Source: Antedon mediterranea (taxonomy: Eukaryota; Animalia; Echinodermata). Taken from it: a stretch of 64,000 nucleotides of DNA. The position numbers were made by a program, and so were the translations under genes. Of the stretch, positions 11 through 31,593 are shown in pieces. Below the pieces are notes generated by a model. The model worked only from the letters and a program-made list of their open reading frames with translations, did no database searches and was not told the DNA's origin. The stretch covers positions 14,162,371 to 14,226,370 of the forward strand of contig NC_092678.1 of NCBI RefSeq assembly GCF_964355755.1, in the 5' to 3' direction. Positions within the stretch are counted from its first letter, which is position 1. Every line of letters starts with the position of its first letter.

Positions 11-553
11 TTGAGAATTCTACTTGCATCGTGTCCAGATGGCACGCATTGTTGCATCGACTGTTCTCGTCTTGTAGGTGTGGTACGATTCTCTTGTGAA
101 AGTCAATGCGACTGTGCAATAGCAAAGCTGGGTATACCCTACGATCATCAATCGTTTGGAAACAAAACACATCCGAGCATAGCATTGGTGGCAAAACGCA
201 CAGCTCCGTTTTGTTCATCGGTCGTGATCGATGATGACGTGGCGGTGTTTATGGACGTCAAACACATAGACTGGTTCACCGTTCAACTGTTGTGCATGTC
301 TTTCGACATGGAAGCTGTCGTCGATCTGAAAGAGAAAACGTTAACCGTTCAAAACGTTATAATAGAGGAAGATGATAAAACAGATTTGGCACATTTGAAA
401 ACAGAAAGATACACCTTAGCGATGCGCTACATTAAGAGCAAGGAGAAGAAGAAGAATAAGAAGAAGAGAAATACTAAAAAGAAGAACCGATTGTGGTATG
501 AAACGTTTCGTTGTCGGATACGTGGTGACAGAAGTGACAGCGGTGGTCGTTGA
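11..553 (+). CDS. Hypothetical viral protein, Cys-rich N-part and basic C-tail; probably starts left of the window
   Basis: 180-aa open frame without an ATG at its start, viral-like composition, overlaps the protease start. Confidence 0.5.
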   Translation: MRILLASCPDGTHCCIDCSRLVGVVRFSCESQCDCAIAKLGIPYDHQSFGNKTHPSIALVAKRTAPFCSSVVIDDDVAVFMDVKHIDWFTVQLLCMSFDMEAVVDLKEKTLTVQNVIIEEDDKTDLAHLKTERYTLAMRYIKSKEKKKNKKKRNTKKKNRLWYETFRCRIRGDRSDSGGR

Positions 554-1730
554 CAAAGAATATGATGTAACGCCTGACGTGATAGATCGATGGAAACTCA
601 TCGGATTGCCGGTTCGATGGAAACACGTGAAAGCACGTAAGAACGGTGTTGGAATACATTCATCGGGAGGCATCGGTACGGTTCTAGATTGGTGGCGAGA
701 CAATACACATCCAGACGCACACGAAGAAGGAACAGGTGCAGTGGCCGTTCTTATAGAGATCACGAATGAACCGTTTTTACGCAGTCCATTCTCACAGCAT
801 CTAAACTGTCTGTCACTCAGCTACAGACGCGCCGATCACACTAAATGCGTTGAAGTTTCTCTCGTGGAGATTGGTCAACGAAAAGGTACAGTGGCCGTGT
901 TCTGTAGTGACGAGCGCAGCGCCAGACGTACAGCAGAAAAAAGATTTGGATATAAACGTCGTCGCAAAGTAAAAGAGGAAAAAGAAGGTGCAATGTCTGT
1001 GAAGAAGGAAGAAAATTTGCTGGCGGAATTGGAAGTAGTGAAAGATATGGCGAACACGTTACCACCGGAAAAACTCGATGCTCTACTCTCGCTGTTGAAA
1101 GACAAGGAAGAGAGCAACGTAAAAGACAAACAAAAAATCAAGGAAGAGGTGGATCTCTTGCGTGAACAATTCGGTGACTTTATACTCCGTTTGAGAGAAA
1201 CGATGGAGGGAAGACTCGGACCTGAATACAATAAGCAAATGAAAGACTTTAAAGCGGTGACGGATCGATGGGACACGGATCCTGGTATTGACGTTGCCGC
1301 CTCGTTTAAGGCCGCCAATGATCTCATCGATGATGCCACCTTGAACATGGCAAACAAGACCGAATTGGGTGATTTGCTCAAGCGCCGTTTTCCAAAAATG
1401 GAAGATCAAGTGAACGTTACAAACGCTACATCATTGAGCGAAATACTAGACATTCACAAGCGATTGTTGACAAAAAACAACGAGAATACGATTAACGTCT
1501 GCAACGATTACTTCAAAACAGTCGAACAACGAATCAAAAATAATACAATGAACGATCATGGTAATAGAAAACGTAAACACAAAACGAATGAACCGCCAGA
1601 GAAAAAACTTAAAGCCACCGCCGCCGCCGCCGCAGCAGGAGCCACCACCACAGACGATGAATTTGAAAAACGTATAAACAGTCTCGAGAAACTTACAGAA
1701 ATGTTGGGCAAACAACTGCTAAACTGCTAA
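498..1730 (+). CDS. Capsid maturation (assemblin/prohead-type) serine protease fused to helical scaffold domain
   Basis: Motifs in the correct order: LPVRWKH (His), IGTV, CLSLSY (Ser nucleophile; cf. herpes LSLSS), EVSLVEIGQRKGTVAV (cf. herpes HVALC..GRRxGT.A); C-terminal charged coiled-coil with NLS-like RKRKHK/KKLK. Confidence 0.85.
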   Translation: MKRFVVGYVVTEVTAVVVDKEYDVTPDVIDRWKLIGLPVRWKHVKARKNGVGIHSSGGIGTVLDWWRDNTHPDAHEEGTGAVAVLIEITNEPFLRSPFSQHLNCLSLSYRRADHTKCVEVSLVEIGQRKGTVAVFCSDERSARRTAEKRFGYKRRRKVKEEKEGAMSVKKEENLLAELEVVKDMANTLPPEKLDALLSLLKDKEESNVKDKQKIKEEVDLLREQFGDFILRLRETMEGRLGPEYNKQMKDFKAVTDRWDTDPGIDVAASFKAANDLIDDATLNMANKTELGDLLKRRFPKMEDQVNVTNATSLSEILDIHKRLLTKNNENTINVCNDYFKTVEQRIKNNTMNDHGNRKRKHKTNEPPEKKLKATAAAAAAGATTTDDEFEKRINSLEKLTEMLGKQLLNC

Positions 1731-1973
1731 AAAAAAAATAAAATTCAATAATAAATAAACAACTTGTTTGTTTTTTTCTTTGTGGTTTTTTATTCTCACA
1801 ATACATTGCAATTACACGAGTAACTTGCGTCCATGTCTTCTACACCGAGTGTAACATTGTCCAACAGTCTACGTCGGCCAATAAACGATGGTGGGTTCAC
1901 GACTTCATCACCGGTACGCAGACAACGTCTAAGTCTGTCTCGTTTGATTTTGTTCTCGTCAATACACAAATCA
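1729..1973. repeat. ~245-bp exact direct repeat, copy 1 (bidirectional poly(A) region plus 3' end of a minus-strand gene)
   Basis: Identical to 5409-5653 (offset 3680). Confidence 0.95.
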
Positions 1974-2360: not shown

Positions 2361-3164
2361 ATGAACAGATCAGACAAGAAAAAATTGCGTCAAAATCGTC
2401 TCTATTTTATTCGTAACATAAACAACATTAGAGAAGTAATGGAGAAATTGGTACAGAAAGGCGTGTATTCGACCAAGAAGATGGATGCAATTTTATCTAA
2501 AACGAACGCTCGTGAACGATTGTTGATCGACATCGAAACACGAGGTAGTTTTGCGTACAATGCATTTATCGATTCTATCCATGATGGCGGATTGAACGAG
2601 TACAAGATGACTTCAAACCCGCGCGGTTTCACAGTAATCATCAACAATTATGATGATGATGATGATGATGATTGTGCAGCGCTTGAAAATGTCTTCAATT
2701 ATCTCGGCTTCCAACTGTCTGTTAATCACAATCTGACGTCCATAGAAACGAAGACGTTGCTCACACGTCTAAGTGAATACGATCACTCTAGACTAGATTG
2801 CATTGCCGTGTGCATTCTCACTCACGGTACTGTCAATGTCACTGAAATCGTCGACTGTTTCGAAAAATGTGAAACGTTGAACGGAAAACCTAAACTCTTT
2901 TTCATACAAGCTTGTCAAGTAGACGAAACAATTGTCGTGCAGCCTCAATCGTTGCCGAGAGGCCGTGACGTATCCATTACGTATTCGACCCTGGACCGTC
3001 AGTATAAGTTTATTCAGTCACTCTGTAAAGTGTTTCATTCGTATTCAACAAAACACGATTTAATGTCCATGTTGACTCTTGCCAACGGAACAATTAAAAG
3101 CAATCAGGTGGCCGCAACCCAGCACGGTCTTTGTAAGAAACTCTTTCTACGTCCCGTGCACTAA
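2361..3164 (+). CDS. Intronless CARD-caspase (initiator caspase-like), shortened; possibly a decoy
   Basis: CARD-like N-terminus (LRQNR...LIDIETRGSFAYNAFIDS), YKMTSNPRG..IINN, ILTHG, LNGKPKLFFIQACQ, FIQSLC; ATG at 2361. Confidence 0.9.
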   Translation: MNRSDKKKLRQNRLYFIRNINNIREVMEKLVQKGVYSTKKMDAILSKTNARERLLIDIETRGSFAYNAFIDSIHDGGLNEYKMTSNPRGFTVIINNYDDDDDDDCAALENVFNYLGFQLSVNHNLTSIETKTLLTRLSEYDHSRLDCIAVCILTHGTVNVTEIVDCFEKCETLNGKPKLFFIQACQVDETIVVQPQSLPRGRDVSITYSTLDRQYKFIQSLCKVFHSYSTKHDLMSMLTLANGTIKSNQVAATQHGLCKKLFLRPVH

Positions 3165-3166
3165 AC

Positions 3167-5407
3167 ATGCATGCCTACTTTACACGAGTGAAATACTGCC
3201 AGAAAAAATTGACAATTCGTTGTACAGACCCGATCGGACGACGTTTGTCGCTGCAGACAAGCAATGTTGAATTCGTCGAATACGTTGAAGATGACGTGTG
3301 CGGTGACTGTGTAATGAGCAGAGGTGACAAATACGTAGCATCGAATCGAAAATACAGAAAAGTTGTATCAAACAACAGAAAGAGAATGATAAACGCTTTC
3401 GGCAATCTTCCATCTGTCGACGACGATCTGGACGCTCAGTGTGCAGTCGGTGTACACGGATGTGCATGGCATCGATACTCGTTGAATGAGCATGGATTCG
3501 TTTCGAACGTACACTATGATGAGCAAGTGCACTTTGAATGCGAAAAAATACATCCTGTAAAACTGTCCGTTCTCTACTTGATCATTAGATTGAACGTATA
3601 CGGACGAATCATTGCGGCACTGTCTTACGACGGTACGAGTGTTGTACAAGCAGCAACAACAGACGACAATGAACGAAGCATACTGCTTGGAATCATAAAA
3701 TCTTTCGATTCAGTTGACGTGCTCGTCTATCACGGAGAATGGGTGAGAGCGAGCATACGAGCACGATGTAAGACATTGAACGTGCCGATCGATAGCATGC
3801 CCATTTGTCTAGACACCACGAACGATGGGCGCACGTTATGTTGTGATCCAAACTCCCTGTACGAGTACGTTGGTAGACGATCCTGTTTTGAGTTGATGGC
3901 CAGCGTATCGGACGGGGCCATGCAAGACGACGCGTCTCTTTTGCCAGAATATTGCAAACAGGTAGAATCGAAAAATTTGATTGATACACTGATGAACGTG
4001 TCTAGACTCGTCGGAGTGTTCCCGAACGCATCGAGAACGCAGGTGCTCTCATCCCTGCTTTGCCGCGAGGCTATACGTCGACAAACTGTTTTTCCAAACA
4101 CTCGTCGTAGAAAATCGACGCGAGACGTTAAAGGTGGTCTTGTACTGGAAACTGTACCCGATATTCACGAACACGTAGAAGTGTACGATTTCAAATCCTA
4201 CTATCCACGCTTTATAGTAGACAAGAATGTAGACTGTTCAACAATGTGTGAGGACGGTTCTTTTGTCGATCGGAACGTACGCGAAGGTCTTTTGCCGTCT
4301 GTCATGAAGAGACTGGTGTTGGGGCGAGATGCTCATCCGCAGCACGCGACTGCCTACAAACGAGCCGCCAACGAATGCATAGGGTGTCTAGTAATTACCG
4401 GCAGTGTTCAACTGTACAACTACGTGACCTCGAAATGCAGACAGCAACTTTGTCGTCTAAAGAAATTCGCCGAAGATAACGGAGCTCGCGTTCTGTACGG
4501 AGACACGGATTCATTGTTTGTGAAACTAGCTGATGATTGTGGCAGCAGCAGAAAACGTTTGGAAGAAAAATTTGCGCAGGTTATAGGCGGCGGCGGCGGC
4601 GGCAGAGATAGCTGGCAGAAATTTGTACACAGAGAGACACTCTGTCGATTGTTATTGACCAACAAGAAGAAAAGGTACGCGTGTTTGCACGCCGACGGGA
4701 ACATCAGCACCACTGGCATGTTCACCTTAAAATGTGACGTTGAACCATTACTTACAGAACTGGATAAAAACTTTGTTGAAACAGCTCTGAAGGAACGCGA
4801 TTGCAACGCGGCCATAGATACGTGCATCGACATCATGCAAACACTTGTCTGTAAACTGAAAGACTCGCAGCAAGTAGACGAGTTAATGATGCGTAGAGTG
4901 TCCAAGAAAGAGACTAGCTCTGCCGCGTACAAGCAAATGTGCATCGCCTTTGGACTGTATCGACAAGTGCCCTACTACATCCGACATAACGGAGTGGCGT
5001 ATCATCCGTTGGCTGCTGCCTGTTGCAATTCGACAGTGGACGCAACCGATCTACTAAGAGGTCTAAGAAAACGTTGTCGCATTGATACAGATTCCGTGCT
5101 GGGCGTTCTCGTTTCTTCTTCTTACAACAACAATATCATAAGTATACAAGAACGAATGGATAAGATGTACGCTATGATTGCAAACGTTCCATTGCATCTC
5201 TCTCGCGCGAAAACATATGAGCAGCAGCAGCAGACAACAAATGTGGACTGTTGCGCTAAAGTTGTATGCACAACGAGCCAAGAAGAACGTCAGGTTAGAA
5301 AGAACGAGCACGTTTTTAGCAGCGTGCAAGAAGAAGATAAAAGAATACTGTTTATTGTACGCTGTCACGATGCCCTTTGTAAACGGGCACATGCTTTCTG
5401 CGCTTGA
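3167..5407 (+). CDS. Family B DNA polymerase, short (746 aa), exonuclease motifs degenerate
   Basis: KGGLVLE, motif A YDFKSYYP, motif B YKRAANECIG, motif C YGDTDSLFV, KKRYA. Confidence 0.92.
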   Translation: MHAYFTRVKYCQKKLTIRCTDPIGRRLSLQTSNVEFVEYVEDDVCGDCVMSRGDKYVASNRKYRKVVSNNRKRMINAFGNLPSVDDDLDAQCAVGVHGCAWHRYSLNEHGFVSNVHYDEQVHFECEKIHPVKLSVLYLIIRLNVYGRIIAALSYDGTSVVQAATTDDNERSILLGIIKSFDSVDVLVYHGEWVRASIRARCKTLNVPIDSMPICLDTTNDGRTLCCDPNSLYEYVGRRSCFELMASVSDGAMQDDASLLPEYCKQVESKNLIDTLMNVSRLVGVFPNASRTQVLSSLLCREAIRRQTVFPNTRRRKSTRDVKGGLVLETVPDIHEHVEVYDFKSYYPRFIVDKNVDCSTMCEDGSFVDRNVREGLLPSVMKRLVLGRDAHPQHATAYKRAANECIGCLVITGSVQLYNYVTSKCRQQLCRLKKFAEDNGARVLYGDTDSLFVKLADDCGSSRKRLEEKFAQVIGGGGGGRDSWQKFVHRETLCRLLLTNKKKRYACLHADGNISTTGMFTLKCDVEPLLTELDKNFVETALKERDCNAAIDTCIDIMQTLVCKLKDSQQVDELMMRRVSKKETSSAAYKQMCIAFGLYRQVPYYIRHNGVAYHPLAAACCNSTVDATDLLRGLRKRCRIDTDSVLGVLVSSSYNNNIISIQERMDKMYAMIANVPLHLSRAKTYEQQQQTTNVDCCAKVVCTTSQEERQVRKNEHVFSSVQEEDKRILFIVRCHDALCKRAHAFCA

Positions 5408-5408
5408 A

Positions 5409-5653
5409 AAAAAAAAAATAAAATTCAATAATAAATAAACAACTTGTTTGTTTTTTTCTTTGTGGTTTTTTATTCTCACAATACATTGCAATTACACGAG
5501 TAACTTGCGTCCATGTCTTCTACACCGAGTGTAACATTGTCCAACAGTCTACGTCGGCCAATAAACGATGGTGGGTTCACGACTTCATCACCGGTACGCA
5601 GACAACGTCTAAGTCTGTCTCGTTTGATTTTGTTCTCGTCAATACACAAATCA
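5409..5653. repeat. ~245-bp exact direct repeat, copy 2
   Basis: Identical to 1729-1973. Confidence 0.95.
5411..5475. terminator. Bidirectional polyadenylation region between convergent genes (duplicated at 1731-1795)
   Basis: AATAAA on + strand and TTTATT (AATAAA on - strand) with a GT-rich tract between two stop codons. Confidence 0.6.
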
Positions 5654-6621
5654 TCATTATCATCACATTCGTTGTGCCGGCCCAAAAATAGAGAAAACAC
5701 ACTCTCGGTGCTTGCTCTGTCCGGTCCGTGTAACACGGTTGATTCGGTTACGCACGGAGGCAACTTGATTCCAATGGCACCTAATCGTTTCCATACACTC
5801 GGTTGAAATATGTCGGCGCTTGACGTGAACGCCGTACTGCGATCATTCACTTCTGTGAGTAATCGTAACGGACATACAAACTGCGAGAATACTGTATCGA
5901 TGTACTTACGATACTGATACCAATTTCGTAACAGATTGCGCCTATTCAACGACACGTCTGAAATGAACGCTCGAACGTCAGTGTCGGCCAATTCGAAATC
6001 TAATACAGTCCGGTTACCGTCATCCTCCTCCTCCTCCTCCTCCTCCTCCTCCTCATTCTCTTGACCAAGAAAAACCAAGTCTCGAGATCGATTGGCAAGA
6101 TCTACAAACATGTCGTTCATCGTTTGCAACGAGAAAACGGCTGTAAGAAAGTCAGCGTTTAACCATCGAATCGGTTCGTTGACTCGAGCTTTAAGAAATT
6201 TCGGCCGATTACCCGTTTGTATGTCACCTCCTACGTACAATTGATCAAGACACGTCTCCAGAATGCGCGCACAATCAGACGCTTGCGAGCCCTGATTGTA
6301 TGATAAACACAAGTGTCGGAATATTCTCATGAGAAGCTCAAAGTAAGGATTGTCCGAACCGTAACGTTTACCATCAAAGTACCATTGAAACGTTGCAACA
6401 GTGTCTATAGTGTACGATCCAACGAACATTCGCCAATCGTGCATCGAGTCTAGCGTACGAAATAGATCCATAAATTGTGTAAAATCGTCTAATCTAGCCA
6501 TCCATAAACGTTCAGTTTTTTTGTCATCATCGTCTACAGTCAAAAGTTTCGACCAAGAAACGTGCACGGCAGGTGATGGAAGTCCGAGTCTCAACACACA
6601 CACTGTCTTTAACAATTCCAT
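5476..6621 (-). CDS. Hypothetical viral protein (~381 aa) with acidic run
   Basis: Long ORF, first ATG at 6621 (MELLKTVCV); no recognisable motif. Confidence 0.7.
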   Translation of the reverse strand: MELLKTVCVLRLGLPSPAVHVSWSKLLTVDDDDKKTERLWMARLDDFTQFMDLFRTLDSMHDWRMFVGSYTIDTVATFQWYFDGKRYGSDNPYFELLMRIFRHLCLSYNQGSQASDCARILETCLDQLYVGGDIQTGNRPKFLKARVNEPIRWLNADFLTAVFSLQTMNDMFVDLANRSRDLVFLGQENEEEEEEEEEEDDGNRTVLDFELADTDVRAFISDVSLNRRNLLRNWYQYRKYIDTVFSQFVCPLRLLTEVNDRSTAFTSSADIFQPSVWKRLGAIGIKLPPCVTESTVLHGPDRASTESVFSLFLGRHNECDDNDDLCIDENKIKRDRLRRCLRTGDEVVNPPSFIGRRRLLDNVTLGVEDMDASYSCNCNVL

Positions 6622-7984: not shown

Positions 7985-9421
7985 TCAATGCGTTGGAAAC
8001 AATGACACCAAGAATCGACGTTCTCTGTCGTTGTAAACTCTAAACTCTACCGACGACGACGATGACGAAGGTTTTCGATACAGATTCAATGCTGATCGAA
8101 CAAACACGACCGCTAACGTGCCGTCTGCGTTGTCAATCAACAGGTTCATATGATCAACTGTTATGTTTGCGCCACTTTCTTGAAACACCACATCTCCAAC
8201 TAGCGTTTGAAAGTCTCTGTAAAACAAATGAACGACATTCTGCGCCACCATCTTCACCGATAACATGTCCATAGATTCGATGTTGGTGCGCTGTGATTGA
8301 ACGTCGTTCTTCAACACTAGAAACGACTTTCTGTTCTCCGGTATTGGATTTAAATTGTCAACAAGCCGATCGATAAAACGTTCACCGAGAACACTTCGAT
8401 ATCGATCCAGTATAGGCAGTTCATCGGACGGCTGGCATTCCAGAGCCTTACATATGTTCATGTCAGAGTTTACGTACGTGTACCAGTAAGCCGTTTCGAA
8501 TTTTGTCATACCACCTCTTATCTTCACAAATTGTCTGCAGAGGCCGACAAGAGTGTGTAATATCTTCGACTTTTGCCCAGTGTCTCCAAGTCTTTTCATG
8601 TCTGTGTATTGCACCTCATCAAATTGTTGGCATTCGTTGTACATTGTGGCCGTCACCATGGTCATTGCGGCAGAAAACACGTCCGATTCACTATTCAGCA
8701 GTTTCACCACTCTGTCTGTCATCACGTGACTGATATCTCGATACCCTATGGACACTAGTCTTTCTACGCTGCGCACTCCTCCGAATCCAGTGTCAACGTC
8801 CATTGTGTAGATCGGCATGTCCGATGGTATGTACGCGGAGGCTATCGATTCTCCGTGAACGCATCCAACACCTCCAAATAAGCCGACCTTTTTGCTCGAT
8901 TCAAATTCGATCATTTTTCGACGATGTACTTCGGCCGAACCGAAATCAATAAACTTGAATCGACCCTGCCGTCTGTTGTACGTCACATTCCTGATGGTTA
9001 TGTCGTTATGTGCGACTCCTATCTTGTCCAGAAAAGCAAGCCCCTCGCCAACATGTCGATAAAGTGTAAGCACGCACGGCAACATTTGCATTGTCATCCG
9101 TATTGTAAACAAGTCAAAACCTTCGTTTGTCATGCGCAGACATTGAGTCACTCCTGAATCGACGACTGCCTGACATATTTGCGGCGTGTACCGTTTCAAT
9201 CTGTCAAAGTAGTTTGCGTAAGCTAAAATGAAAGTTTCCTTGTTGAATGTTAAACGTACTCGTGCATCGCTGCTATTCTGATTGCCACAATGTAATTTTT
9301 CAACTAAACCAGACTCTATCGAATGGACAACGCCAAAAGAACCTCGGCTGTTCACAGTCACCAACGGATCGATTGTATTATCCAATTTGCCAAACGATAA
9401 AATCTTCTTTTGACCATGCAT
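7985..9421 (-). CDS. Divergent Ser/Thr protein kinase 1
   Basis: RGSFGVV glycine loop, VEK, HNDITIRNV, IDFG, SDVFSAA; ATG at 9421. Confidence 0.9.
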   Translation of the reverse strand: MHGQKKILSFGKLDNTIDPLVTVNSRGSFGVVHSIESGLVEKLHCGNQNSSDARVRLTFNKETFILAYANYFDRLKRYTPQICQAVVDSGVTQCLRMTNEGFDLFTIRMTMQMLPCVLTLYRHVGEGLAFLDKIGVAHNDITIRNVTYNRRQGRFKFIDFGSAEVHRRKMIEFESSKKVGLFGGVGCVHGESIASAYIPSDMPIYTMDVDTGFGGVRSVERLVSIGYRDISHVMTDRVVKLLNSESDVFSAAMTMVTATMYNECQQFDEVQYTDMKRLGDTGQKSKILHTLVGLCRQFVKIRGGMTKFETAYWYTYVNSDMNICKALECQPSDELPILDRYRSVLGERFIDRLVDNLNPIPENRKSFLVLKNDVQSQRTNIESMDMLSVKMVAQNVVHLFYRDFQTLVGDVVFQESGANITVDHMNLLIDNADGTLAVVFVRSALNLYRKPSSSSSSVEFRVYNDRERRFLVSLFPTH

Positions 9422-9447: not shown

Positions 9448-10692
9448 TTAAGAGAGAATGGCTTTCTGACGTTTATCTATTTTACCTCGACAAATCGGAC
9501 ACAAAAGCAAACTGTTTGAACACGACCAGCAGGCGACCAAATGCGAACATGGAATGAAAAGAACACAAACGTCAGCGTCCATGCATATCTTACATGTTTT
9601 TTTTTCGCGTAAATCGCGCACAACAGATTGCAAATCTTCTTCTTCCTCCACTTCTTCCTCTTCTACCACTGTTGGTTTATCGTTCACTGGAATCGTGACA
9701 GCGTTCAGAAGCTCAAGGGTAGACGTAAAGTTTCCACCGGTTCTCTTCACGTGATCGTTTACAGTAGTCGATACATGTTGCATGTCAAAACCCATTTCTA
9801 AAACTTTCACAACGATTTCAGAGCGCATTGCAATATCAAACGGACTTTTTGACGAAATAAGAGCCGTCTCGATGAAAGAAAAACCTTTTTCGATTCTCAA
9901 CCAATTGCAGAACGGAAACCACTTTGCATGCTCGATCCAAGGATTATCGTCTAATTGCCAGTCTTTCAGTCCACCGCCGCAATGGAAACACATTGCCTGG
10001 TCCCGATTGATTGCAAAGAATCCGGCCTCGGCTATTCCGTTCGGCGTATGATCGGTAGCCCATACTGTAGTAAACGTCATTTTTCGAACATTCAAAAGAG
10101 CGTATTGTGGATGCATTGCCCGTTGCCTATTGGTGGTGGTGGTGGTGGTGGTGGTGGTGGGGGTCGCCACGGTGGCCACGGTGGATAACATGAACTTACA
10201 CAACGGAAAATGTTTTCTATGCTCTTCGTCGACATTCACTCCTCTTTTCCATCGCTCAAGTAAACCGTTGCAAGAGAAGCATTCGACTACGTCACAGCAT
10301 GACCTGTAATAAAATCCAGACTTTGCTAAAGTGCACGCCGATACGATGTGTCCAAATGGCCAGTTTTTAAAAGTCGACAATCTGACCATATGCGAGTTTG
10401 AGTCGACCAAATGTGTTTTACTGCCAATTAAAGGACTGCTGTTACCACATGACATCAGTTTGCACAACGGGAAGTGTTTCTTGTGCTCTGTATCGGCATC
10501 TGCTCCGGCGTTCCATCTCGAAAGTTTACCGTGACAACGGTAACATTCTACCCGGTCGTCTTGCCCCGTATAAAAGAAGCCCGACATTGCTAACGATGTA
10601 GGCGATATCACGTGTCCCGCAATCCAAAACTCATACGTGGCCAATCGTCTTTCATAACATTCCATCGCGCCTGTATGCACTATTTTATTCAT
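9448..10692 (-). CDS. Inhibitor of apoptosis (3 BIR + UBA + RING), intronless
   Basis: Three BIR repeats (RLATY/RLSTF/RKMTF ... CxxC ... H ... C), VLEMGFD UBA, C-terminal CKICMD..PCSHLVAC..C..CPICR; likely ATG at 10692 (MNKIV). Confidence 0.96.
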   Translation of the reverse strand: MNKIVHTGAMECYERRLATYEFWIAGHVISPTSLAMSGFFYTGQDDRVECYRCHGKLSRWNAGADADTEHKKHFPLCKLMSCGNSSPLIGSKTHLVDSNSHMVRLSTFKNWPFGHIVSACTLAKSGFYYRSCCDVVECFSCNGLLERWKRGVNVDEEHRKHFPLCKFMLSTVATVATPTTTTTTTTTNRQRAMHPQYALLNVRKMTFTTVWATDHTPNGIAEAGFFAINRDQAMCFHCGGGLKDWQLDDNPWIEHAKWFPFCNWLRIEKGFSFIETALISSKSPFDIAMRSEIVVKVLEMGFDMQHVSTTVNDHVKRTGGNFTSTLELLNAVTIPVNDKPTVVEEEEVEEEEDLQSVVRDLREKKTCKICMDADVCVLFIPCSHLVACWSCSNSLLLCPICRGKIDKRQKAILS

Positions 10693-11284: not shown

Positions 11285-12697
11285 ATGATTTCATCCAATG
11301 ATCTGGTGAAAACGACCGCAGAGAAGGTTATGCCTAAGTCAGATGATTTGTTACAGGACGAAAACGCTTCGTTGAAGAAAAGTGTAAAATGTATACACCT
11401 TCTAGAACAGTTGTTGAAAGACCGTGATAAATCGTTGAACCACTTAGAGAAGACGGTAAAAAACTATAAATTATGTATTGAACATCTACAATGGCGCTTA
11501 CACAAACACAACTTGGACTCATCAGTTGATTTGAAAGAACATGAAATATTCGAGCCTGGTCACGATAAACCGATTTTAATAAGCTTGTTGAATGACGCTA
11601 TACGATATAAAAGATTGCTTGACGAGAAGTTTAGCTCCGAAGAGGTAAGACGAAACTAAGTGTGAGAATATTTGTCATGAATTCGTTAAAATTATCATAG
11701 TGGTGTGAGTGTGTGATTTATTATTATTTTTTTTTAATGTTCAGGTTGCCGAAGCAAAAGAAACCATTTCTGTTCTTGAGAAAAAAGTTAGTAAGCTGTG
11801 TGTACAGTTGAAACGGAAAGAGAACGAACTCATTGTTGTTTTAACTAAAATGAGATCCTCAGACGACGAGAAAGATGTAGTAATTAGTAAGTTAAAATGT
11901 CAGCTACGAGATTATTTTTCACAGCGTAACAATGATGACGCTGTTCGTGACACGTTGAGCTCCGAAATAAGAACATTAAAATCAAATACTGAACAGTTTG
12001 TTGAAGAGAAAAAGAAGATAACAAATGAACTAAAAGCATATGCGCAAAGAGAGAAGGTATGGGTACAGGAAAGAAATATGTGTTTTGCTCACGCTAGAAT
12101 TTTACATTCAGAATCAAAGTTCGAAGATGAATGTAAAACGTTGCAAGAACAGGTTCGAAATTTAAGTCGTGAAAATACAGATTTATGTAGGCAATTAAAA
12201 GAGATAATTGTTATGAACACTCGCTGGCAAAAGTACTCTGAACAAAGAGAAGCACACGTTGTGCAGTTGAAACAACAATTGAAAGTATCTGAAAACAAAG
12301 TTTTCAAGAATCATTGCCTTATTTCTGAACTTGAGCGGATGGAAAAAGAGAAACGAAAAAAAGAAATCGATACTGCTGTTCTTAGTTTGGCAACAGATTT
12401 GGGAAAGACATGCGAATTGAATTGACTAAACACAATAACAGACTTGATGAAATAATTGGTCAATATCAAGAGACGTATGCGTCACTTCAACAATCTTACT
12501 TACCTTCTTCTAATACTCCCGATATTCTTGAATTAGTTTGTGATGATGATGATTATGCAGCTGTAGAAGACGGTAATTTGGATGAATTATTACAATGTCC
12601 TCGTTTTCTGAAAGAGTTTAATATCATAGAACATGTTCAGTTAGTTGATCATTTAGATACATGTGATGTTGATGAATACAATAATTCTATCTTATAA
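11285..12697 (+). pseudogene. TNIP2(ABIN-2)/CEP55-like coiled-coil gene with one intron (11645-11744) and a frameshift near 12300-12420
   Basis: GT-AG phase-0 intron joins SSEE|VAEAK; EABR-like MNTRWQKYSEQREAHV; C-terminal NEMO-type finger remnant LQCPRF..F..EH..L..H...C in a different frame. Confidence 0.7.
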
Positions 12698-14404: not shown

Positions 14405-16045
14405 TCATCTACATGGTCGTTTCGCAGATGAAACTTCTTCTTCATCATCGGCCACCACCACCGTATTGTATTCGGATCTGGATTTTTCGACGCTTACTAT
14501 GAGCGGTACGTCGTCGTTGACTTTCACATACATTCGGCGTATTCCATCGTGTAATTTTAATTTAGCGTTGGTGCCGAATGAATTCGACAAATGTTTAATG
14601 TCCTCGTCGCTGAACACGCAGAATTCTACTGTAGTTGCAATATATTGACTCAGTCTGAGAGCCGACATGAGAAACGACATGATCAGTTTCCGATCGTTTG
14701 ACATGATGTGCATATGTTCCACCACCACAACGTTTCGATTCGGGCTTTCGTTGCCAAATTTGATGTCTCCAATCGAAATGTCATGTTCGTGTACTAGATA
14801 CACCAATCTATCTTCAACGCGTTTCAACGAAAACTGTTTACCGCCAAACAATACAGTTGAGTCGTGTTGTTTCGAAGCCGCCTTTTCTAGTTTCGATACA
14901 CATCGACGTTCCGGTACAGGGTTCAAACATTCTTTTAAAGCGTCCGTAAACTCGACTCCCAAGAACGGACTGAATCTATCGATGTATGAATTGTATTTCT
15001 TGCTGCTGGAACAATGCGACAGTGAAAATGCGTCGGTCAGTGATCTATCCGGATTCACGTGCGTGTACCAAAACTGGAGATCACGTTCGTTCATCGGACC
15101 ACGTAGTTCTACCGAATGTCTACACACCTTAATCAAATTGTTGTACGCAAATTTGTCCTTTTTTAAATCGCAATAGTCGCTTTGCGTCTCAAACTTATTC
15201 CGATTGTTGTCATCATAAAACATTAAAGCCACACTCATCGAGGCGCTGTAAACGTCGGAATTTCGACGCAACATCTTCACTCGTCTGTCTGACATCACAT
15301 GACTTATGTCCCTGAAAGGTATCCTTGTCAGTTTCTCCTCACTCCTGACGCACGAATAGTTTGGTTCGGTGTCGGAAAAGCGTAGTCGACTTCCCGGTGG
15401 CAAGTACTTTGACGCCATGGAACCGGTTCGAACGATACCCAAACATCGATGGCCATGTCTCTCTTTCACAGAAACGCCAAACGTGCTTGCACCGGGCTTT
15501 GTAAACTCGGCAGAACCAAAGTCTATTATACGAAATCGATTATCTAATCGACTATACGCCACGTTCTCGATTGTTATGTCGTTGTGAACCACACCTGCGT
15601 TTTCGAGAAACGTCAACGCTTTGCAAACATGTAACGAAAGCGTTTTCACGCAAGGCAGAAGCTTGTAACAATAGCGTAGCCTGTACAGATTACATCCTTC
15701 GTTTCTCATTGTGATTGATATTGCGATGTTACGCCGATAAGAAACTTCGAGCAGACGAGGCGTACACATTCGAGCCGCGTCCGTTTGTTTTAAGTGTGCA
15801 AGAACCAAAACTTCCTTGTTTCCCGACAAGTTCACGTCTTCATGCTCGAGCGTAGACGTGTGACTGGCCGTGAAATCATACAATGTCTTTATCACAACGT
15901 GCACGTTTTCTATAGCTGTCTTCACTTTGCCATGTTTCCCACTTTCTTGAATTCGAATAGCGCCGTACTTGCCGTTTACAGCCGGTAAACTTTCATACTT
16001 TCTCGTTGTTATTTGCGTCTTGTACAGGGGTAGAAATTCAGCCAT
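14405..16045 (-). CDS. Divergent Ser/Thr protein kinase 2 (paralogue of kinase 1)
   Basis: SGKHGKV, VVIK, HNDITIENV, IDFG, RDISHVM.DR.VK, SDVYSAS; ATG at 16045 (MAEFLP). Confidence 0.9.
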   Translation of the reverse strand: MAEFLPLYKTQITTRKYESLPAVNGKYGAIRIQESGKHGKVKTAIENVHVVIKTLYDFTASHTSTLEHEDVNLSGNKEVLVLAHLKQTDAARMCTPRLLEVSYRRNIAISITMRNEGCNLYRLRYCYKLLPCVKTLSLHVCKALTFLENAGVVHNDITIENVAYSRLDNRFRIIDFGSAEFTKPGASTFGVSVKERHGHRCLGIVRTGSMASKYLPPGSRLRFSDTEPNYSCVRSEEKLTRIPFRDISHVMSDRRVKMLRRNSDVYSASMSVALMFYDDNNRNKFETQSDYCDLKKDKFAYNNLIKVCRHSVELRGPMNERDLQFWYTHVNPDRSLTDAFSLSHCSSSKKYNSYIDRFSPFLGVEFTDALKECLNPVPERRCVSKLEKAASKQHDSTVLFGGKQFSLKRVEDRLVYLVHEHDISIGDIKFGNESPNRNVVVVEHMHIMSNDRKLIMSFLMSALRLSQYIATTVEFCVFSDEDIKHLSNSFGTNAKLKLHDGIRRMYVKVNDDVPLIVSVEKSRSEYNTVVVADDEEEVSSAKRPCR

Positions 16046-18829: not shown

Positions 18830-21657
18830 AAAGTAATAATAAAAAAAAATTTAATTTCAACACAAGGCTCCTTTTGTGGTGACACGAGCCATATTTTCCT
18901 TTTATTATCCCTAACACAATGTTCTCGAAAAAAAAAATTGACCATAACGTGTCACTTTGTAAACTAAACGGTATACATTCTTTTAGTTATAGTTGTTCAC
19001 TAACACGATTTATTCGATAATGAACCCTAATTAAAAAAAAACAAACAAAAGTGTATTCGAAGTTATACTAAACGGTATATTAATAGAAGACAAAGTATTT
19101 GTTATCGATGAAGGGATAATGAAATTGATATTATTATAATTTAAACGGCGTGTTTAGTATTTTGTAGTCCTGATAACGAATACAATAAGTAGTTCGCCCT
19201 CTATTGACAAATAATATACCTGCGTTATACGCCGCGTGACAGACAATAATTATACTAGGCCTACTGTGTTTCTTAATGGGTATATTTTAGTTTTATTATA
19301 GAAGTTCTGTAACGCGATGTTGTCGATAAAGGGATAATGAATTGATAAAGGGATAATGAATTGATGATTGAGTGAGAAGTATAAGGAATGATCTAGAAGG
19401 TTATGAACATAATATTTTGTATAAGGGGATGTAGGCCTATGTTCTGTCTTGTGTGTAAACTGAATGCTTAAACATTGACGCACACTGCCATTGAGGTCGA
19501 AGTAATCATTGCATACGGATGCGTGTTACTGCTCTATCAAGATCAGGACTGCATTATTCACACACATAAAACACTGAGAGTAATAAAGAAAATCTATGCT
19601 TGATTGTTTTACACTCGAAAAATGTATTAGTATTTTGTAATAAAATAAAGGTAATTCAAATTGTCACATGATGCATTAATAAATTAATTAATGTTCATAA
19701 ACGTCCAAATACTAGTTTTCTAGCATTTGTATTAAAATAATGCCTGCTATCTGTCTATATAGCAGATATATTTTCATGTTTTGTTCTGCTCTGCATACGG
19801 GATGTGGGTGTGTGTGTGTGTGTGTCTTCTACTGACTGACTGACTGACGTTCACGATTTAACGTTACCGCTCCAAGAATTCAATACTACAATACATTGTT
19901 TGTTGTAATATTGATATTGCTATACCTTTCAATGTTCATAAATGTCAATATGCTGGTGTCTCCTATTCCATCTATCTTTGGTACAGTTCCTGAGGATGAG
20001 GATACTAAAGACTGGATGGGGATAGACAAAGGTTTTGACGGCGAGGATAGTTATTGAAAACGAAGAAGAATGTGTAAGAATTTGTATAGGCCTAATCATG
20101 ATCTAGAGTAGAAGTGAGTTATGTTAACAGATTGTGTGTGCTCAAAATAATCCATTAATCAAAATAATTATGCATTTTTAATTGTTGATTTTATATATGA
20201 AGATGATAATAAAATTGAAAGAAATTAAAGTGTATTCTTTATTCGTATTCATTGTTTAAGTGTGTAAAATTTCATGTAGATCCAGTAATAATAACTAATG
20301 GTATCCAATGCGAATGTGTTGTGGTTATTGAATAGAACCAATGTAATGGTCCACTGAACTTCAAAGGCTGCTTTCTAATTGTTGATAATCTATTGAATTC
20401 GGAAGTAATCTATTGAATTCGGAGGTGATTTGTTGAAATCGGGTCATATCTAATTGCCTTGAAAGAAATATAAAGCAAGTTACATATTTTTTTGGAAAGT
20501 TTAAAGAATGGAGATTAATATAATAATAATAATAATAAAATTTTAATTTCAACACAAGGCTCCTTTTGTGGTGACACTAGCCATATTTTCTTTTATTATC
20601 CCTAACACGATGTTCTCTAAAAAAAAATTGACCATAACGTGTCACTTTGTAAACTAAACGGTATACATTCTTTTAGTTATAGTTGTTCACTAACACGATT
20701 TATTCGATAATGAACCCTAATTAAAAAAAACAAATAAAAGTGTATTCGAAGTTATACTAAACGGTATATTAATAGAAGACAAAGTATTTGTTATCGATGA
20801 AGGGATAATGAAATTGATATTATTATAATTTAAACGGCGTGTTTAGTATTTTGTAGTCCTGATAACGAATACAATAAGTAGTTCGCCCCCTATTGACAAA
20901 TAATATACCTGCGTTATATGCCGCGTGACAGACAATAATTATAGGCCTATTGTGTTTCTAAATGGGTATATTTTAGTTTTATTATAGAAGCTCTGTAACG
21001 CGATGTTGTCGATAAAGGGATAATGAATTGATAAAAGGATAATGAATTGATGATTGAGTGAGAAGTATAAGGAATGATCTAGAAGGTTATGAACATAATA
21101 TTGTATAAGGCGATGTATGTTCTCTCTTGTGTGTAAACTGAATGCTTAAACATTGACGCACACTGTCATTGAGGTCGAAGTAATCATTGGATACGGATGC
21201 GTGTTACTGCTATATCAGGATCAGGACTGCATTATTCAAACACATAAAACACTGAGAGTAATAAAGAGAATCTATGCTTGATTGTTTTACACTCGAAAAA
21301 TGTATTAGTATTTTGTAATAAAATAAAGGTAATTCAAATTGTTACATGATGCATTAATAAATTAATTAATGTTCATAAACGTCCAAATACTAGTTTCCTA
21401 GAATTTGTATTAAAATAATGTCTGCTATCTGTCTATGTAGCAGATATATGTTCATGTTTCGTTCTGGTCTGCATACGGGATGTGTGTGTGTGTGTCTTCT
21501 ACTGACTGGCTGACGTTCACGATTTAACGTTACCGCTCCAAGAATTCAATACTACAATACATTGTTTGTTGTAATATTGATATTGCTATACCTTTCAATG
21601 TTCATAAATGTCAATATGCTGGTGCTTCCTATTCCATCTATCTTTGGTACAGTTCTT
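18830..21657. repeat. Tandem segmental duplication: ~18830-19990 repeated at ~20530-21657, including the 3' end of the AlkB-like gene
   Basis: Near-identical sequence from TTTAATTTCAACACAAGGCTCC to TCTTTGGTACAGTTC, offset about 1.7 kb. Confidence 0.92.
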
Positions 21658-22226
21658 GACCATTCATTGATTGTTTCAGAATTTATTACCAGCATCGAAC
21701 CGTGCTCCATTTTTATGTTCACAGGTTTAATGTTTTTGTTGGTGCGGTGTTCGAATCTACAGATTCTAGTAGGTCCCAGAGACATAATGCATACAGGACT
21801 TATTTTGCTCCTTTGTACATCATTAAGATAGCATTCCGCTGAATCCTCCGCTCTTGTCAAAGTTACCATATTGTAAAAATGACCAGTCGCAATGTGTATC
21901 CATTCACGCATTTCGAGTAGAAACTTTGGCCAGTAACACAGAGGACTTCTCGCTGTGTCGTCAATGTTTGTGTGAACTCCTATTTGGAATGACAACTCCA
22001 AATCACCGTACGCTGCACATCTAATGTGATCTACTTCAGTGATCACATCGCGTAACTTATATAGAGAATCGAATAAATGTGTTTTCCTACATTGTTTTAA
22101 AATAGTGTCTGCTATCAGTCTATGTAGCAGATGTACACGAACGCATTTCATGTTATCTTCCGGTCTGCATACGGTGTGTGAATGAAAGCCGAAATAAAAC
22201 TCATCTTCTGACTGGCTGACGTTCAT
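21552..22226 (-). CDS. AlkB/ALKBH2-3-like 2OG-Fe(II) dioxygenase fold protein, metal ligands apparently lost
   Basis: WPKFLLEMRE..H.ATG..YN.V, ISPVCIMSLGPTR..RF, I.MEHGSMLVI....NEWSRTVPK, LTF; HxD and distal His absent. Confidence 0.75.
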   Translation of the reverse strand: MNVSQSEDEFYFGFHSHTVCRPEDNMKCVRVHLLHRLIADTILKQCRKTHLFDSLYKLRDVITEVDHIRCAAYGDLELSFQIGVHTNIDDTARSPLCYWPKFLLEMREWIHIATGHFYNMVTLTRAEDSAECYLNDVQRSKISPVCIMSLGPTRICRFEHRTNKNIKPVNIKMEHGSMLVINSETINEWSRTVPKIDGIGSTSILTFMNIERYSNINITTNNVL

Positions 22227-22316
22227 GATTACTTTATTGCTACAAGAATTCACTACAACTTCCAATTAAAGTTTGAAACTAAAACTCCATACTGGTCGAT
22301 TTTTATACTTTGCGAT

Positions 22317-22749
22317 GAAGGTTAACTACACGCGTTGTCAACAAACAACGAAACCGATGAATGATTGTCGATTATACTGATGTGTATGTGTGGTGCGCGC
22401 TTTAAAATTCGTATTGAATATATCGTGCCTTCTCTTCCTCCTACCCGGCTTAATTTGCGTATGGTTTTCGAATGATGATCATGAAACACACAAACGGGTG
22501 TAATTCCATCGTTAGTTACTTTAGTGTTACTATAAAACCGTCTCGGCAATATGATGGAAATAAGCGTCACTGTCGGTAAATGTATACACCGGTCCCAAAG
22601 AGTCAGGGTCAATTACTTTTTTTTAAGAAATATGTTTAATGTGTATTATTATTATTATAGTTTAATATAAGCGTATTTTATAAATTTAATCTCCATTGAT
22701 TCTATCATCATATTTTAAAATCAAAATGCTATGTTTTAAATTCTATTTG

Positions 22750-22801
<52 letters not shown>

Positions 22802-23279
22802 TCCCTCTCCTTCTCTCCTTATTAATTTAGATTCGACTATGTAGAAACGGAATTTAATTTCCAAATTAAAACACTGCATTGTAACAATATTATAATCGGT
22901 CTGCTTTTCTTTTATCGATGATGACAATAGAAATAAGGGTAGGGCGTGTGTATGTATCACCGCCGGTCAGTGTACACACCAGGTCACAAAGCTTTAAAGA
23001 AATATTTTTAATTGTTATCCCGAATATGTGTGTTAGAGTAATTCGTTTTGATATATAATCATTTTGGTATACTAACAATTTGAACAAGCTGCCTCTACGC
23101 GCCTAGTCGTAAATCCAATCCTAGATTCTATATTTACCGATATTGCGCCCCCTATATAGTTTTTGATAAATTACTAATAATGTTATGGTATCGATAGATT
23201 GTAAGCCAGCTGAATGGTTAGTTCTTGAGTCTCGTAATGTAACGCTGTAGCATTAGGCTAGGGTTCGAGAATTGATTTG

Positions 23280-23332
<53 letters not shown>

Positions 23333-23809
23333 ATATTTGTTTTACTCACCATCTTCTTTATTGACCATAGTTAAGGTTAACTACACGCGATTTGTCAACA
23401 AACAACGAAACCGATGAATGATTGTCGATTACACTGATGTGTATGTGTGGTGCGCGCTTTTAAATTCGTATTGAATATATCGTGCCTCCTCTTCCTCCTA
23501 CCCGGCTTAATTTGCGTATGGTTTTCGCATGATGATCATGAAATACACAAACGGGTGTAATTCCATCGTTAGTTACTTTAGTGTTTCAATAAAACCGTCT
23601 CTGCAATATCATGGAAATAAGCGTCACTGTCGGTTAATGTATACACCGGTCCCAAAGAGTCAGGGTCAATTACTTTTTTTTTAGAAATATGTTTAATGTG
23701 TATTATTATTATTATAGTTTAATATATTAAGCGTATTTTATAAATTTCATCTCCATCGATTCTACCATCACATTTTAAAATCAAAATGCTATGTTTTAAA
23801 TTCTATCTA

Positions 23810-23841
<32 letters not shown>

Positions 23842-26800
23842 CTTCTCTGCTTATTAATTTGGATTCGACTATGTAGAAACAGAATTTAGATTCCAAATTA
23901 AAACACTGCATTGTAACAATATTATAATCGGTCTGCATTGCTTTTATCGATGATGACAATAGAAATAAGGGTAGGGCGTGTGCATGTATCACCGTCGGTC
24001 AGTGTACGCACCAGGTCACAAAGCTTTAAAGAAATATTTTTAATTGTTTTTCCGAATATGTGTGTTAGAGTAATTCGTTTCGATATATAATCATTTTGGT
24101 ATACTAACAATTTCAACCAGCTGCCTCTACGCGCCTAGTCGTAAATCCAATCCTATAGATTCTATATTTACCGATATTGCGCCCCTATATAGTTTTTGAT
24201 AAATTACTAATAATGTTATGGTATCGATAGATTGTAAGCCAACTGAATGGTTAGTTCTTGAGTCTCGTAATGTAACGCTGTAGCATTAGGCTAGGGTTCG
24301 AGAATTGATTTGATACATATATATATATATATTTTTAATATTTTTTTACTCACCATCTTCTTTATTGACCATAGTTAAGGTTAACTACACGCGATTTGTC
24401 AACAAACAACTAAACCGATGAATGATTGTCGATTACACTGATGTGTATGTGTGGTGCGCGCTTTTAAATTCGTATTGAATATATCGTGCCTCCTCTTCCT
24501 CCTACCCGGCTTAATTTGCGTATGGTTTTCGAATGATGATCATGAAATACACAAACGGGTGTAATTCCATCGTGAGTTACTTTAGTGTTTCAATAAAACC
24601 GTCTCTGCAATATGATGGAAATAAGCGTCACTGTCGGTAAATGTATACACCGGTCCCAAAGAGTCAGGGTCAATTACTTTTTTTTTAGAAATATGTTTAA
24701 TGTGTATTATTATTATTATAGTTTAATATAAGCGTATTTTATAAATTTCATCTCCATCGATTCTATCATCATATTTTAAAATCAAAATGCTATGTTTTAA
24801 ATTCTATCTAGGTTTCTCTCTCTCTCTCTCTCTCTCCCTCTCCTTCTCTCCTTATTAATTTGGATTCGACTATGTAGAAACGGAATTTAGATTCCAAATT
24901 AAAACACTGCATTGTAACAATATTATAATCGGTCTGCATTGCTTTTATCGATGATGACAATAGAAATAAGGGTAGGGCGTGTGCATGTATCACCGTCGGT
25001 CAGTGTACACACCAGGTCACAAAGCTTTAAAGAAATATTTTTAATAATTATCCCGAGTATGTGTGATAGAGTGATTCGTTTCGATATATAATCATTTTGG
25101 TATACTAACAATTTCAACCAGCTGCCTCTACGCGCCTAGTCGTAAATCCAATCCTAGATTGATATTTTGTTTTACTCACCATCTTCTTTATTGACCATAG
25201 TTAATGTTAACTACACGCGATTTGTCAACAAACAACTAAACCGATGAATGATTGTCGATTACACTGATGTGTATGTGTGGTGCGCGCTTTTAAATTCGTA
25301 TTGAATATATCGTGCCTCCTCTTCCTCCTACCCTGTTTAATTTGCGTAGAGTTTTCGCATGATGATCATGAAACACACAAACGGGTGTAATTCCATCGTT
25401 AGTTACTTTAGTGTTTCAATAAAACCGTCTCGGCAATATGATGGAAATAAGCGACACCGTCGGTAAATGTATACACCGGTCCCAAAGAGTCAGGGTCAAT
25501 TAATTTTTTTAATAAATATGTTTAATGTGTATTATTATTATTATTATTATTATAGTTTAATATATTAAGCGTATTTTATAAATTTCATCTCCATCGATTC
25601 TATCATTCGTTTCGATATATAATCATTTGGTATACTAACAATTTCAACCAGCTGCCTCTACGCGCCTAGTCGTGTGTCTGTATCACCGTCGGTCAGTGTA
25701 TACACCGGTCACCGGAACCGGTCACAAACCTTTAAAGAAATATTTTTAATTGTTGTCCCGAATATGTGTGATAGAGTAATTCATTTCGATATATAATCAT
25801 TTTGGTATACTAACAATTTGAACAAGCTTCCTCTACGCGCCTAGTCGTAAATCCAATCCTATAGATTCTATATTTACCGATATTGCGCCCCTATATAGTT
25901 TTTGATAAATTACTAATACTGTTAGGGTATCGATAGATTGTAAGCCAGCTGAATGGTTAGTTCTTGAGTCTCGTTATGTAACGCTGTAGCCTTAGGCTAG
26001 GGTTCGAGAATTGATTTGATACATATATATATTTTTTTAATATTTGTTTTACTCACCATCTTCTTTATTGACCATAGTTAAGGTTAACTACACGCGATTT
26101 GTCAACAAACAACTAAACCGATGAATGATTGTCGATTACACTGATGTGTATGTGTGGTGCGCGCTTTTAAATTCGTATTGAATATATCGTGCCTCCTCTT
26201 CCTCCTACCCTGCTTAATTTATGCGTATGGTTTTTGAATGATGATCATGAAACACACAAACGGGTGTAATTCCATCGTTAGTTACTTTAGTGTTTCAATA
26301 AAACCGTCTCTGCAATATCATGGAAATAAGCGTCACTGTCGGTAAATGTATACACCGGTCCCAAAGAGTCAGGGTCAATTAATTTTTTTAAGAAATATGT
26401 TTAATGTGTATTATTATTATTATAGTTTAATATATTAAGCGTATTTTATAAATTTCATCTCCATCGATTCTATCATCACATTTTAAAATCAAAATGCTAT
26501 GTTTTAAATTCTATTTAGGTTTCTCTCTCTCTCTCTCTCCCTCTCCTTCTCTCCTTGTTAATTTAGATTCGACTATGTAGAAACGGAATTTAATTTCCAA
26601 ATTAAAACACTGCATTGTAACAATATTATAATCGGTCTGCATTGTTTTTATCGATGATTACAATAGAAATGCGGGTAGGGCGTGTGCATGTATCACCGTC
26701 GGTCAGTGTACACACCAGGTCACAAAGCTTTAAAGAAATATTTTTAATTGTTATCCCGAATATGTGTGTTAGAGTAATTCGTTTTGATATATAATCATTT

Positions 26801-27014
26801 TGGTATACTAACAATTTCAACCAGCTGCCTCTACGCGCCTAGTCATAAATCCAATCCTAGATTCTATATTTACCGATATTGCGCCCCTATATAGTTTTTG
26901 ATAAATTACTAATAATGTTATGGTATCGATAGATTGTAAGCCAGCCGAATGGTTAGTTCTTGAGTCTCGTAATGTAACGCTGTAGCCTTAGGCTAGGGTT
27001 CGAGAATTGATTTG

Positions 27015-27057
<43 letters not shown>

Positions 27058-27850
27058 ATATTTCTTTTACTCACCATCTTCTTTATTGACCATAGTTAAG
27101 GTTAACTACACGCGATTTGTCAACAAACAACGAAACCGATGAATGATTGTCGATTACACTGATGTGTATGTGTGGTGCGCGCTTTTAAATTCGTATTGAA
27201 TATATCGTGCCTCCTCTTCCTCCTACCCTGTTTAATTTGCGTAGAGTTTTCGCATGATGATCATGAAACACACAAACGGGTGTAATTCCATCGTTAGTTA
27301 CTTTAGTGTTTCAATAAAACCGTCTCGGCAATATGATGGAAATAAGCGACACCGTCGGTAAATGTATACACCGGTCCCAAAGAGTCAGGGTCAATTAATT
27401 TTTTTAATAAATATGTTTAATGTGTATTATTATTATTATTATTATAGTTTAATATATTAGGCGTATTTTATAAATTTCATCTCCATCGATTCTATCATTC
27501 GTTTCGATATATAATCATTTGGTATACTAACAATTTCAACCAGCTGCCTCTACGCGCCTAGTCGTGTGTCTGTATCACCGTCGGTCAGTGTATACACCGG
27601 TCACCGGAACCGGTCACAAAGCTTTAAAGAAATATTTTTAATTGTTGTCCCGAATATGTGTGATAGAGTAATTCGTTTCGATATATAATCATTTTGGTAT
27701 ACTAACAATTTGAACAAGCTTCCTCTACGCGCCTAGTCGTAAATCCAATCCTATAGATTCTATATTTACCGATATTGCGCCCCTATATAGTTTTTGATAA
27801 ATTACTAATACTGTTAGGGTATCGATAGATTGTAAGCCAGCTGAATGGTT

Positions 27851-27852
<2 letters not shown>
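22317..27852. repeat. Array of ~6 tandem units of ~0.8-1.05 kb with internal (CT)n and (AT)n tracts and higher-order structure
   Basis: Unit anchor GTTAACTACACGCG recurs near 22320, 23375, 24380, 25205, 26082 and 27100. Confidence 0.97.
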
Positions 27853-27888
<36 letters not shown>

Positions 27889-27913
27889 GAAAATATAACT
27901 TCAAGTCAATGAT

Positions 27914-31400: not shown

Positions 31401-31561
31401 AAGTTGTGAAAAATCTTTCTCATCATCACTATGCCCGGATTCTTTGCCGTGTATTTTTCACCGTATAAATGCCTATTAAGAAAAAAAAAAAAAACAAAAA
31501 AAAAAAACGAAAACAATTATAAATCAAAAGTAAAACACGCACACTACAATTTGTGTTGTGG

Positions 31562-31593
<32 letters not shown>

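Follow-up and report, generated by a model that had tools for sequence, protein, structure and literature searches.

An intronless CARD-caspase gene among virus-like genes

Over the first 33 kb of the window (the whole 64,000-nucleotide stretch of DNA analyzed here), intronless ORFs are densely packed, and the element to which they belong extends past the window start. It contains a capsid protease-scaffold-like ORF, a family B DNA polymerase (PolB), two kinases, an IAP, an AlkB-like ORF and a P-loop ORF. The DNA past ~33 kb has about 31% GC and carries repeats and a fragment that we take to be LINE-like.

A single open frame on the plus strand of this element (2361..3164) encodes a CARD-caspase of 267 amino acids. 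A Pfam scan placed a CARD at residues 7–75 (E = 9.9e-10) and a Peptidase_C14 domain at residues 92–257 (E = 2.9e-21), both passing the cut-off, and the gene is thus intronless and CARD-bearing, as an earlier note on this DNA had proposed. The domain, the fold, and a His-Cys dyad in HG and QAC motifs assign the protein to caspase family C14A; an NCBIfam scan returned nothing informative. In two database proteins for the same gene (P0001 and P0269) the start is placed at Met27. However, because Met1 of the ORF aligns with Met1 of a host caspase, P0122, the form with a full CARD is the likelier product; starting at Met27 would cost the CARD its Arg10 and Arg13.

That the gene is virus-borne, also claimed earlier, is supported both by its viral neighbors and by the base composition that it shares with them. 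Its CpG observed/expected ratio is 1.46 and its GC3 is 0.45, like the viral ORFs (CpG 1.25–1.61 in 10 of 11 others), whereas the CpG ratio of the DNA at 36–64 kb is 0.83. The protease-scaffold-like ORF (498..1730, plus strand) matched Pfam Herpes_ORF28 (E = 2.2e-7), although at 30.8 bits this falls below the cut-off of 40, and an HK97 prohead protease cluster (0.93); it had no match to a solved protease structure. The PolB gene (3167..5407, plus strand) starts 2 nt past the caspase stop. Each of these two proteins has one close relative, i.e., P0121 for the protease and P0272 (47% identity) for PolB, and no herpesvirus-named match appeared among the PolB relatives in a word-limited search. We call the carrier herpes-like in a provisional sense. 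No major capsid protein, terminase or portal was recognized among the 20 ORFs scanned; the element runs off the window start. Searches of viral contigs with the caspase, PolB and protease alignments, and of metagenome contigs with the protease and PolB alignments, found no related loci, and an exact-sequence lookup in the cluster table gave no entry for ten other ORFs of the element.

The IAP (9448..10692, minus strand), in which Pfam recognized three BIR domains, a weak UBA and a RING, is genuine, but it lies 6.3 kb from the caspase.

Residues and loops missing from the caspase domain

The protein was compared with 227 single-domain caspase relatives, those of a set of 268 that have a single QAC-type motif. 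It lacks the arginine of loop L1 (present in 217 of the 227), that of loop L3 (208) and the aspartate of the hairpin (211), and it carries Val in place of the Gly of the QACxG motif (217). What it retains are His155, the oxyanion Gly156, Gln183 and Cys185. The catalytic residues had been reported as kept, and they were located in THG (2820..2828) and in QACQV (2907..2921), both on the plus strand.

The losses that had been noticed previously were all found. A (GAT)7 run encoding aspartates (2652..2672, plus strand) stands where loop L1, with the first S1 arginine, is in other caspases; the motif QACQV lacks its Gly; and the substrate loop of the small subunit, L3, of which a remnant is encoded at 2982..3011 (plus strand), is shortened by 9 residues, which also removed the second S1 arginine motif and the GSW motif. 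The earlier note nevertheless understated the loss, since the hairpin after THG, part of L4 and two linkers are missing too. Relative to the host caspase P0122 (alignment A4), the gaps are of 3, 101, 7, 11, 2, 43 + 11, 9 and 9 residues, lying, in that order, in a CARD loop, the CARD-p20 linker, L1, the surface hairpin after the catalytic His, a short turn, the inter-subunit linker that follows QACQV, L3 and L4. Counting the two gaps in the inter-subunit linker as one, there are eight internal deletion sites, none of which breaks the frame or falls outside a loop or linker; about 101 amino acids of the CARD-p20 linker and about 54 of the inter-subunit linker are gone. The caspase domain comprises 177 amino acids, compared with a median of 236 in the 206 relatives that have both ends; one fragment is shorter, and P0169 comes close at 180.

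The basic S1 pocket that receives a P1 aspartate is formed by Arg179, Gln283 and Arg341 (PMC2064784, in excerpt), and because only the Gln is kept here, two of the three pocket residues are gone. The protein thus lacks the basic S1 pocket, as well as the QACxG motif and the complete L3 and L4 loops, of an active Asp-specific caspase, and its sequence strongly suggests that Asp-specific protease activity has been lost. It also differs from metacaspases and paracaspases, having Gln183 rather than Asp and a deletion of L3 at the site of Arg341, where they have Asp or Glu, and from the FLIP family, in that a CARD is present instead of tandem DEDs and the dyad is kept.

The set of losses goes beyond chance: both S1 arginines are missing from only two of the 227 relatives, P0099 and P0180. 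The cluster of P0099 was considered as a parallel case of a short caspase and rejected, as that protein is a fragment without either end. P0180, a caspase of the acorn worm Ptychodera flava, lacks both arginines, yet its loops are of near-normal length; it has an additional N-terminal region, presumably UEV-like.

Might the protein instead be an active protease of changed or loose specificity, its Asp run creating an acidic S1 pocket so that cleavage would follow Arg or Lys, or be limited to one special substrate? We regard this as unlikely, although slightly less so than the two other alternatives considered below. The retention of the dyad, the oxyanion Gly and Gln183 would fit such an enzyme, and acidic residues in place of the S1 arginines do switch specificity in metacaspases and paracaspases (PMC2064784, in excerpt); an ascovirus, moreover, has an active caspase with the odd motif QSCLG (PMC12655742, in excerpt). 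However, L3, which lines the substrate groove, has been deleted here rather than substituted, and Gln183 is not Asp, unlike in metacaspases. The Asp run itself is 7 residues long, against 9 in another, almost identical protein, and homopolymer runs occur in 8 of the 12 ORFs checked, so that a special role for it was rejected.

Relationship to caspase-9, predicted fold and variation among copies

Among 1.84 billion representative sequences, the best non-self match was P0122 (E = 4.2e-34, against 3.8e-23 for the next), which is a CARD-caspase of Antedon mediterranea. P0269, a 99% identical protein, is present as three accessions on two Antedon mediterranea contigs, and an Atlas search yielded ordinary caspase clusters only. 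When the CARD alone (2361..2594, plus strand) was searched against the 268 relatives, P0122 and its isoform again came first at 43.8 bits, with the next at 29.5. It is identical to the CARD of P0122 at 35 of 77 positions, compared with 34 of 77 between P0122 and a sea-urchin relative and 35 of 77 between P0122 and an acorn-worm relative. In trees of 37 and 31 rows the protein had no supported place and a long branch (1.45–1.81 changes per column). A constraint grouping it with the Antedon caspase was not rejected (p-AU 0.73), its log-likelihood being 8 units above that of the free search. The gene was likely captured from a crinoid caspase-9-like gene, and the host in whose genome this large DNA virus is integrated is probably a feather star.

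Against solved structures, the top seven matches of the CARD were CARDs of the caspase-9 type (best E = 3e-4), with RAIDD next (E = 0.016). Of the two targets that the earlier note had suggested, the apoptosome is therefore favored, and the PIDDosome ranks lower. The arginine patch of caspase-9 consists of Arg10, Arg13, Arg52 and Arg56, of which Arg13, Arg52 and Arg56 touch Apaf-1 (PMC13626777, in excerpt). Arg10 and Arg13 are kept in the viral CARD; in an ungapped register the positions of human Arg52 and Arg56 are not, and Arg56 is not clearly kept in the host P0122 either.

Folding from the single sequence gave a pLDDT of 42, and an AlphaFold model built from an alignment of 81 sequences (pLDDT 89.4, pTM 0.77, with only residues 187–195 below 50) was used instead. 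In this model the core is predicted to fold as a caspase, matching caspases with Z scores of about 26 and an rmsd of 1.5–2.0 over 176–186 residues, and the dimer face formed by helix 5 and strand 6 (residues 235–260, encoded at 3063..3140, plus strand) is predicted to be intact, L4, which lies inside it, being 9 residues shorter. Foldseek ranked human caspase-9 chains first, by small margins, and the structure of the caspase-8:c-FLIP-L complex (3h11) was among the tied best matches.

A heterodimer was modeled between residues 78–267 of the protein and residues 178–462 of P0122. It scored 0.84, against 0.60 for the best of three controls, with a contact agreement between runs of at least 51%, a partner pLDDT of at least 81 and an interface centered on residues 235–260. 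Among solved pairs, the mark that it reached is attained by 51 of 78 (microbial) and 39 of 65 (eukaryotic); among mismatched pairs, by 2 of 108 and 2 of 126, respectively. However, because caspase dimers have been solved and close relatives of a true partner also pass, this result may reflect likeness only; the model speaks for a dimer face of ordinary appearance rather than for binding, and it cannot separate inhibition of the partner from activation. The two dimer segments are identical to P0122 at 6 of 13 and 6 of 16 positions, compared with 10 of 13 and 13 of 16 between host relatives, and the best conserved segments are those around the dyad (13 of 17 and 17 of 29).

Given that cFLIP-L can activate its partner caspase, an inactive partner of host caspase-9 that triggers a limited activity for the virus to use, e.g., for release, is an alternative that would draw on the same modeled heterodimer with its normal dimer face and on the match to 3h11. 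Nevertheless, the parts that normally support a partner's active site, L4 and the inter-subunit linker, are truncated here, and the same element encodes a full IAP. Viruses do exploit host caspases (PMC10583209, in excerpt), but we consider this role improbable here.

Parts of the stretch are present in nine public runs from three organisms. Four of these were compared over the caspase region and four over the IAP region, uncovered stretches not being scored as absences. One contig of run X7 covers the whole caspase ORF, with 13 substitutions, 3 gap letters and no gap longer than 3 nt. Run X8 covers two parts of the ORF, and the copies in other public runs have the same deletions wherever they are covered. 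Because the X7 contig spans the ORF and X8 covers those two parts, the deletions are not an assembly artifact. Run X9, which we guess to be RNA, overlaps the ORF only in its final 17 nt and is silent on expression.

The caspase copies differ by 6 synonymous and 7 non-synonymous changes, giving a pN/pS of 0.32–0.45 (P = 0.04–0.125 under three transition weights). By part, the ratio is 0.17–0.25 for the CARD and 0.47–0.65, not significant, for the catalytic part. Corresponding values are 0.62–0.86 for the IAP (20 changes, with about 2 differences near contig ends unlisted), 0.86–1.19 for PolB (at least 8 changes, from partial cover at low depth) and 0.08–0.11, i.e., clear purifying selection, for the tested part of the kinase at 7985–9421 (9 changes). 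The copy comparison thus neither confirms selection nor shows decay, and the selection signal on the caspase is weak.

These figures bear on whether the gene is merely a functionless capture that is decaying within an integrated virus. Once transitions are weighted, its pN/pS is not clearly below 1 (P = 0.076–0.125), and in the same comparisons the IAP and PolB are near neutral while one kinase is at 0.08–0.11, so the copies may partly drift. We doubt this explanation as well, because all eight deletion sites are in frame and fall in loops or linkers only. If they were independent and neutral, this would have a chance of about (1/3)^8, an overstated figure, since it was its open frame that led to the selection of the gene. 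Furthermore, the fold is predicted to be intact, the base composition is entirely that of the virus, and the CARD shows no less conservation than is seen between host relatives.

A candidate decoy of caspase-9

The explanation that we consider reasonably probable is that the protein is an inactive decoy, which takes the seat of caspase-9 on the apoptosome and pairs with host caspase-9. It is favored because both S1 arginines are lost, the loop deletions are in frame, the fold is predicted to be kept and the CARD is caspase-9-like. The virus would have captured a spliced copy of a host caspase-9-like gene and trimmed it. Without L1, L3 and L4, the product would have no grip on a substrate with a P1 aspartate; its CARD would displace caspase-9 on Apaf-1, while its core would pair with host caspase-9, the short L4 and linker failing to support the active site of the partner. 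Intrinsic apoptosis would be damped in this way, alongside the action of the viral IAP. The dominant-negative action is inferred. The main fact that the decoy leaves unexplained is that the dyad is kept on a long branch; a dead enzyme need not keep it. Against it also are the weak selection among the copies, the lack of a supported place in the trees, the dimer segments, in which host relatives resemble one another more closely than this protein resembles P0122, and the absence of Arg52 and Arg56, and the heterodimer could activate the partner instead.

A bolder version, which we find quite conceivable but put forward with some hesitation, is that a herpes-like crinoid virus has built an apoptosome equivalent of FLIP, i.e., a captured caspase-9, disabled by excision of its substrate loops but retaining dyad, CARD and dimer face, that would act as a two-handed inhibitor of both the Apaf-1 seat and caspase-9 dimers. 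FLIPs have DEDs and target caspase-8; cFLIP-L has lost its catalytic residues, and viral FLIPs are not known to have a caspase domain. In cFLIP-L a recruitment domain is joined to an inactive caspase fold, partnered with that of an initiator caspase (as in 3h11); the window protein resembles it in combining a recruitment domain with a caspase fold that is probably inactive and predicted to pair, and differs from FLIPs in its CARD and its kept dyad. With caspase-9b, a dominant-negative competitor for the apoptosome (PMC5410359, in excerpt), it shares the caspase-9 type of CARD, but caspase-9b is a host splice form without the whole large subunit, whereas the window protein is viral, keeps both subunits and the dyad, and is short of loops and linkers only.

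Like the ascovirus caspases (SfAV-1a ORF073, HvAV-3e ORF165 and TnAV-6a ORF072), it is a virus-encoded caspase of the animal type. Its best viral match by fold was SfAV-1a (E = 5e-12, 17% identity), and caspase-fold proteins of an entomopoxvirus and a baculovirus also matched by fold. Ascoviruses, however, are insect viruses of another realm, and their caspases, as described in an excerpt of PMC12655742, are active executioners (SfAV-1a ORF073) or lack catalytic residues (HvAV ORF165, and TnAV ORF072, which is without canonical catalytic residues and without a CARD). Viral caspase mimics and decoys are a known theme, and what appears to be new here is a viral CARD joined to a full caspase fold stripped of its loops. 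In the mostly open-access literature searched, we found no CARD-bearing caspase in a herpes-like virus and no such virus of a crinoid. If the interpretation is true, the protein would fill a gap among viral inhibitors of apoptosis, with a type in which a CARD and a full caspase fold are aimed at caspase-9, and another route to a pseudo-protease, by excision of loops rather than loss of the dyad. As a natural minimal caspase scaffold, it would allow one to ask whether pairing through the dimer face can by itself shut off caspase-9 on the apoptosome.

The element also points to an undescribed, divergent group of echinoderm viruses. It is like BelcheriHV-1 of amphioxus, a large herpes-like genome integrated in a deuterostome chromosome, for which the excerpted text (PMC12373286) mentions no viral caspase, although its supplementary gene table could contain one.

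Other features of the element were observed in passing. PolB is short (746 amino acids) and has an odd motif III, KRAANECIGC, which is similar in P0272; the virus group may generally shrink its proteins. Runs X5, X7, X8 and X9 carry a second, GC-richer PolB-like sequence at window positions 3424–3471 and 4662–4700, spaced identically in the runs that show the joint (X5, X7 and X9) and with a motif resembling that of P0272; it probably belongs to another virus within this group. The caspase-PolB block is flanked by the two copies (1729..1973 and 5409–5653) of an exact direct repeat of 245 nt. The minus-strand ORFs at 1796–2299 and 5476–6621 have a common 3' end, and run X7 differs upstream of 1974; these features suggest a rearrangement in the window copy.

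Three close ORFs of 467, 179 and 801 amino acids on the minus strand (28466–32832), the middle one with a P-loop, are possibly one split primase-helicase gene. At 21552–27900 the AlkB-like ORF (Pfam E = 9e-4, below the cut-off) is followed by about six tandem copies of a repeat of about 1 kb. A coiled-coil ORF on the plus strand (11850–12425) weakly matches the EABR domain of CEP55 (E = 1.8e-4, below the cut-off) and is a possible ESCRT-recruiting mimic. The two protein kinases, both on the minus strand (7985–9421 and 14405–16045), are divergent and apparently related to each other.
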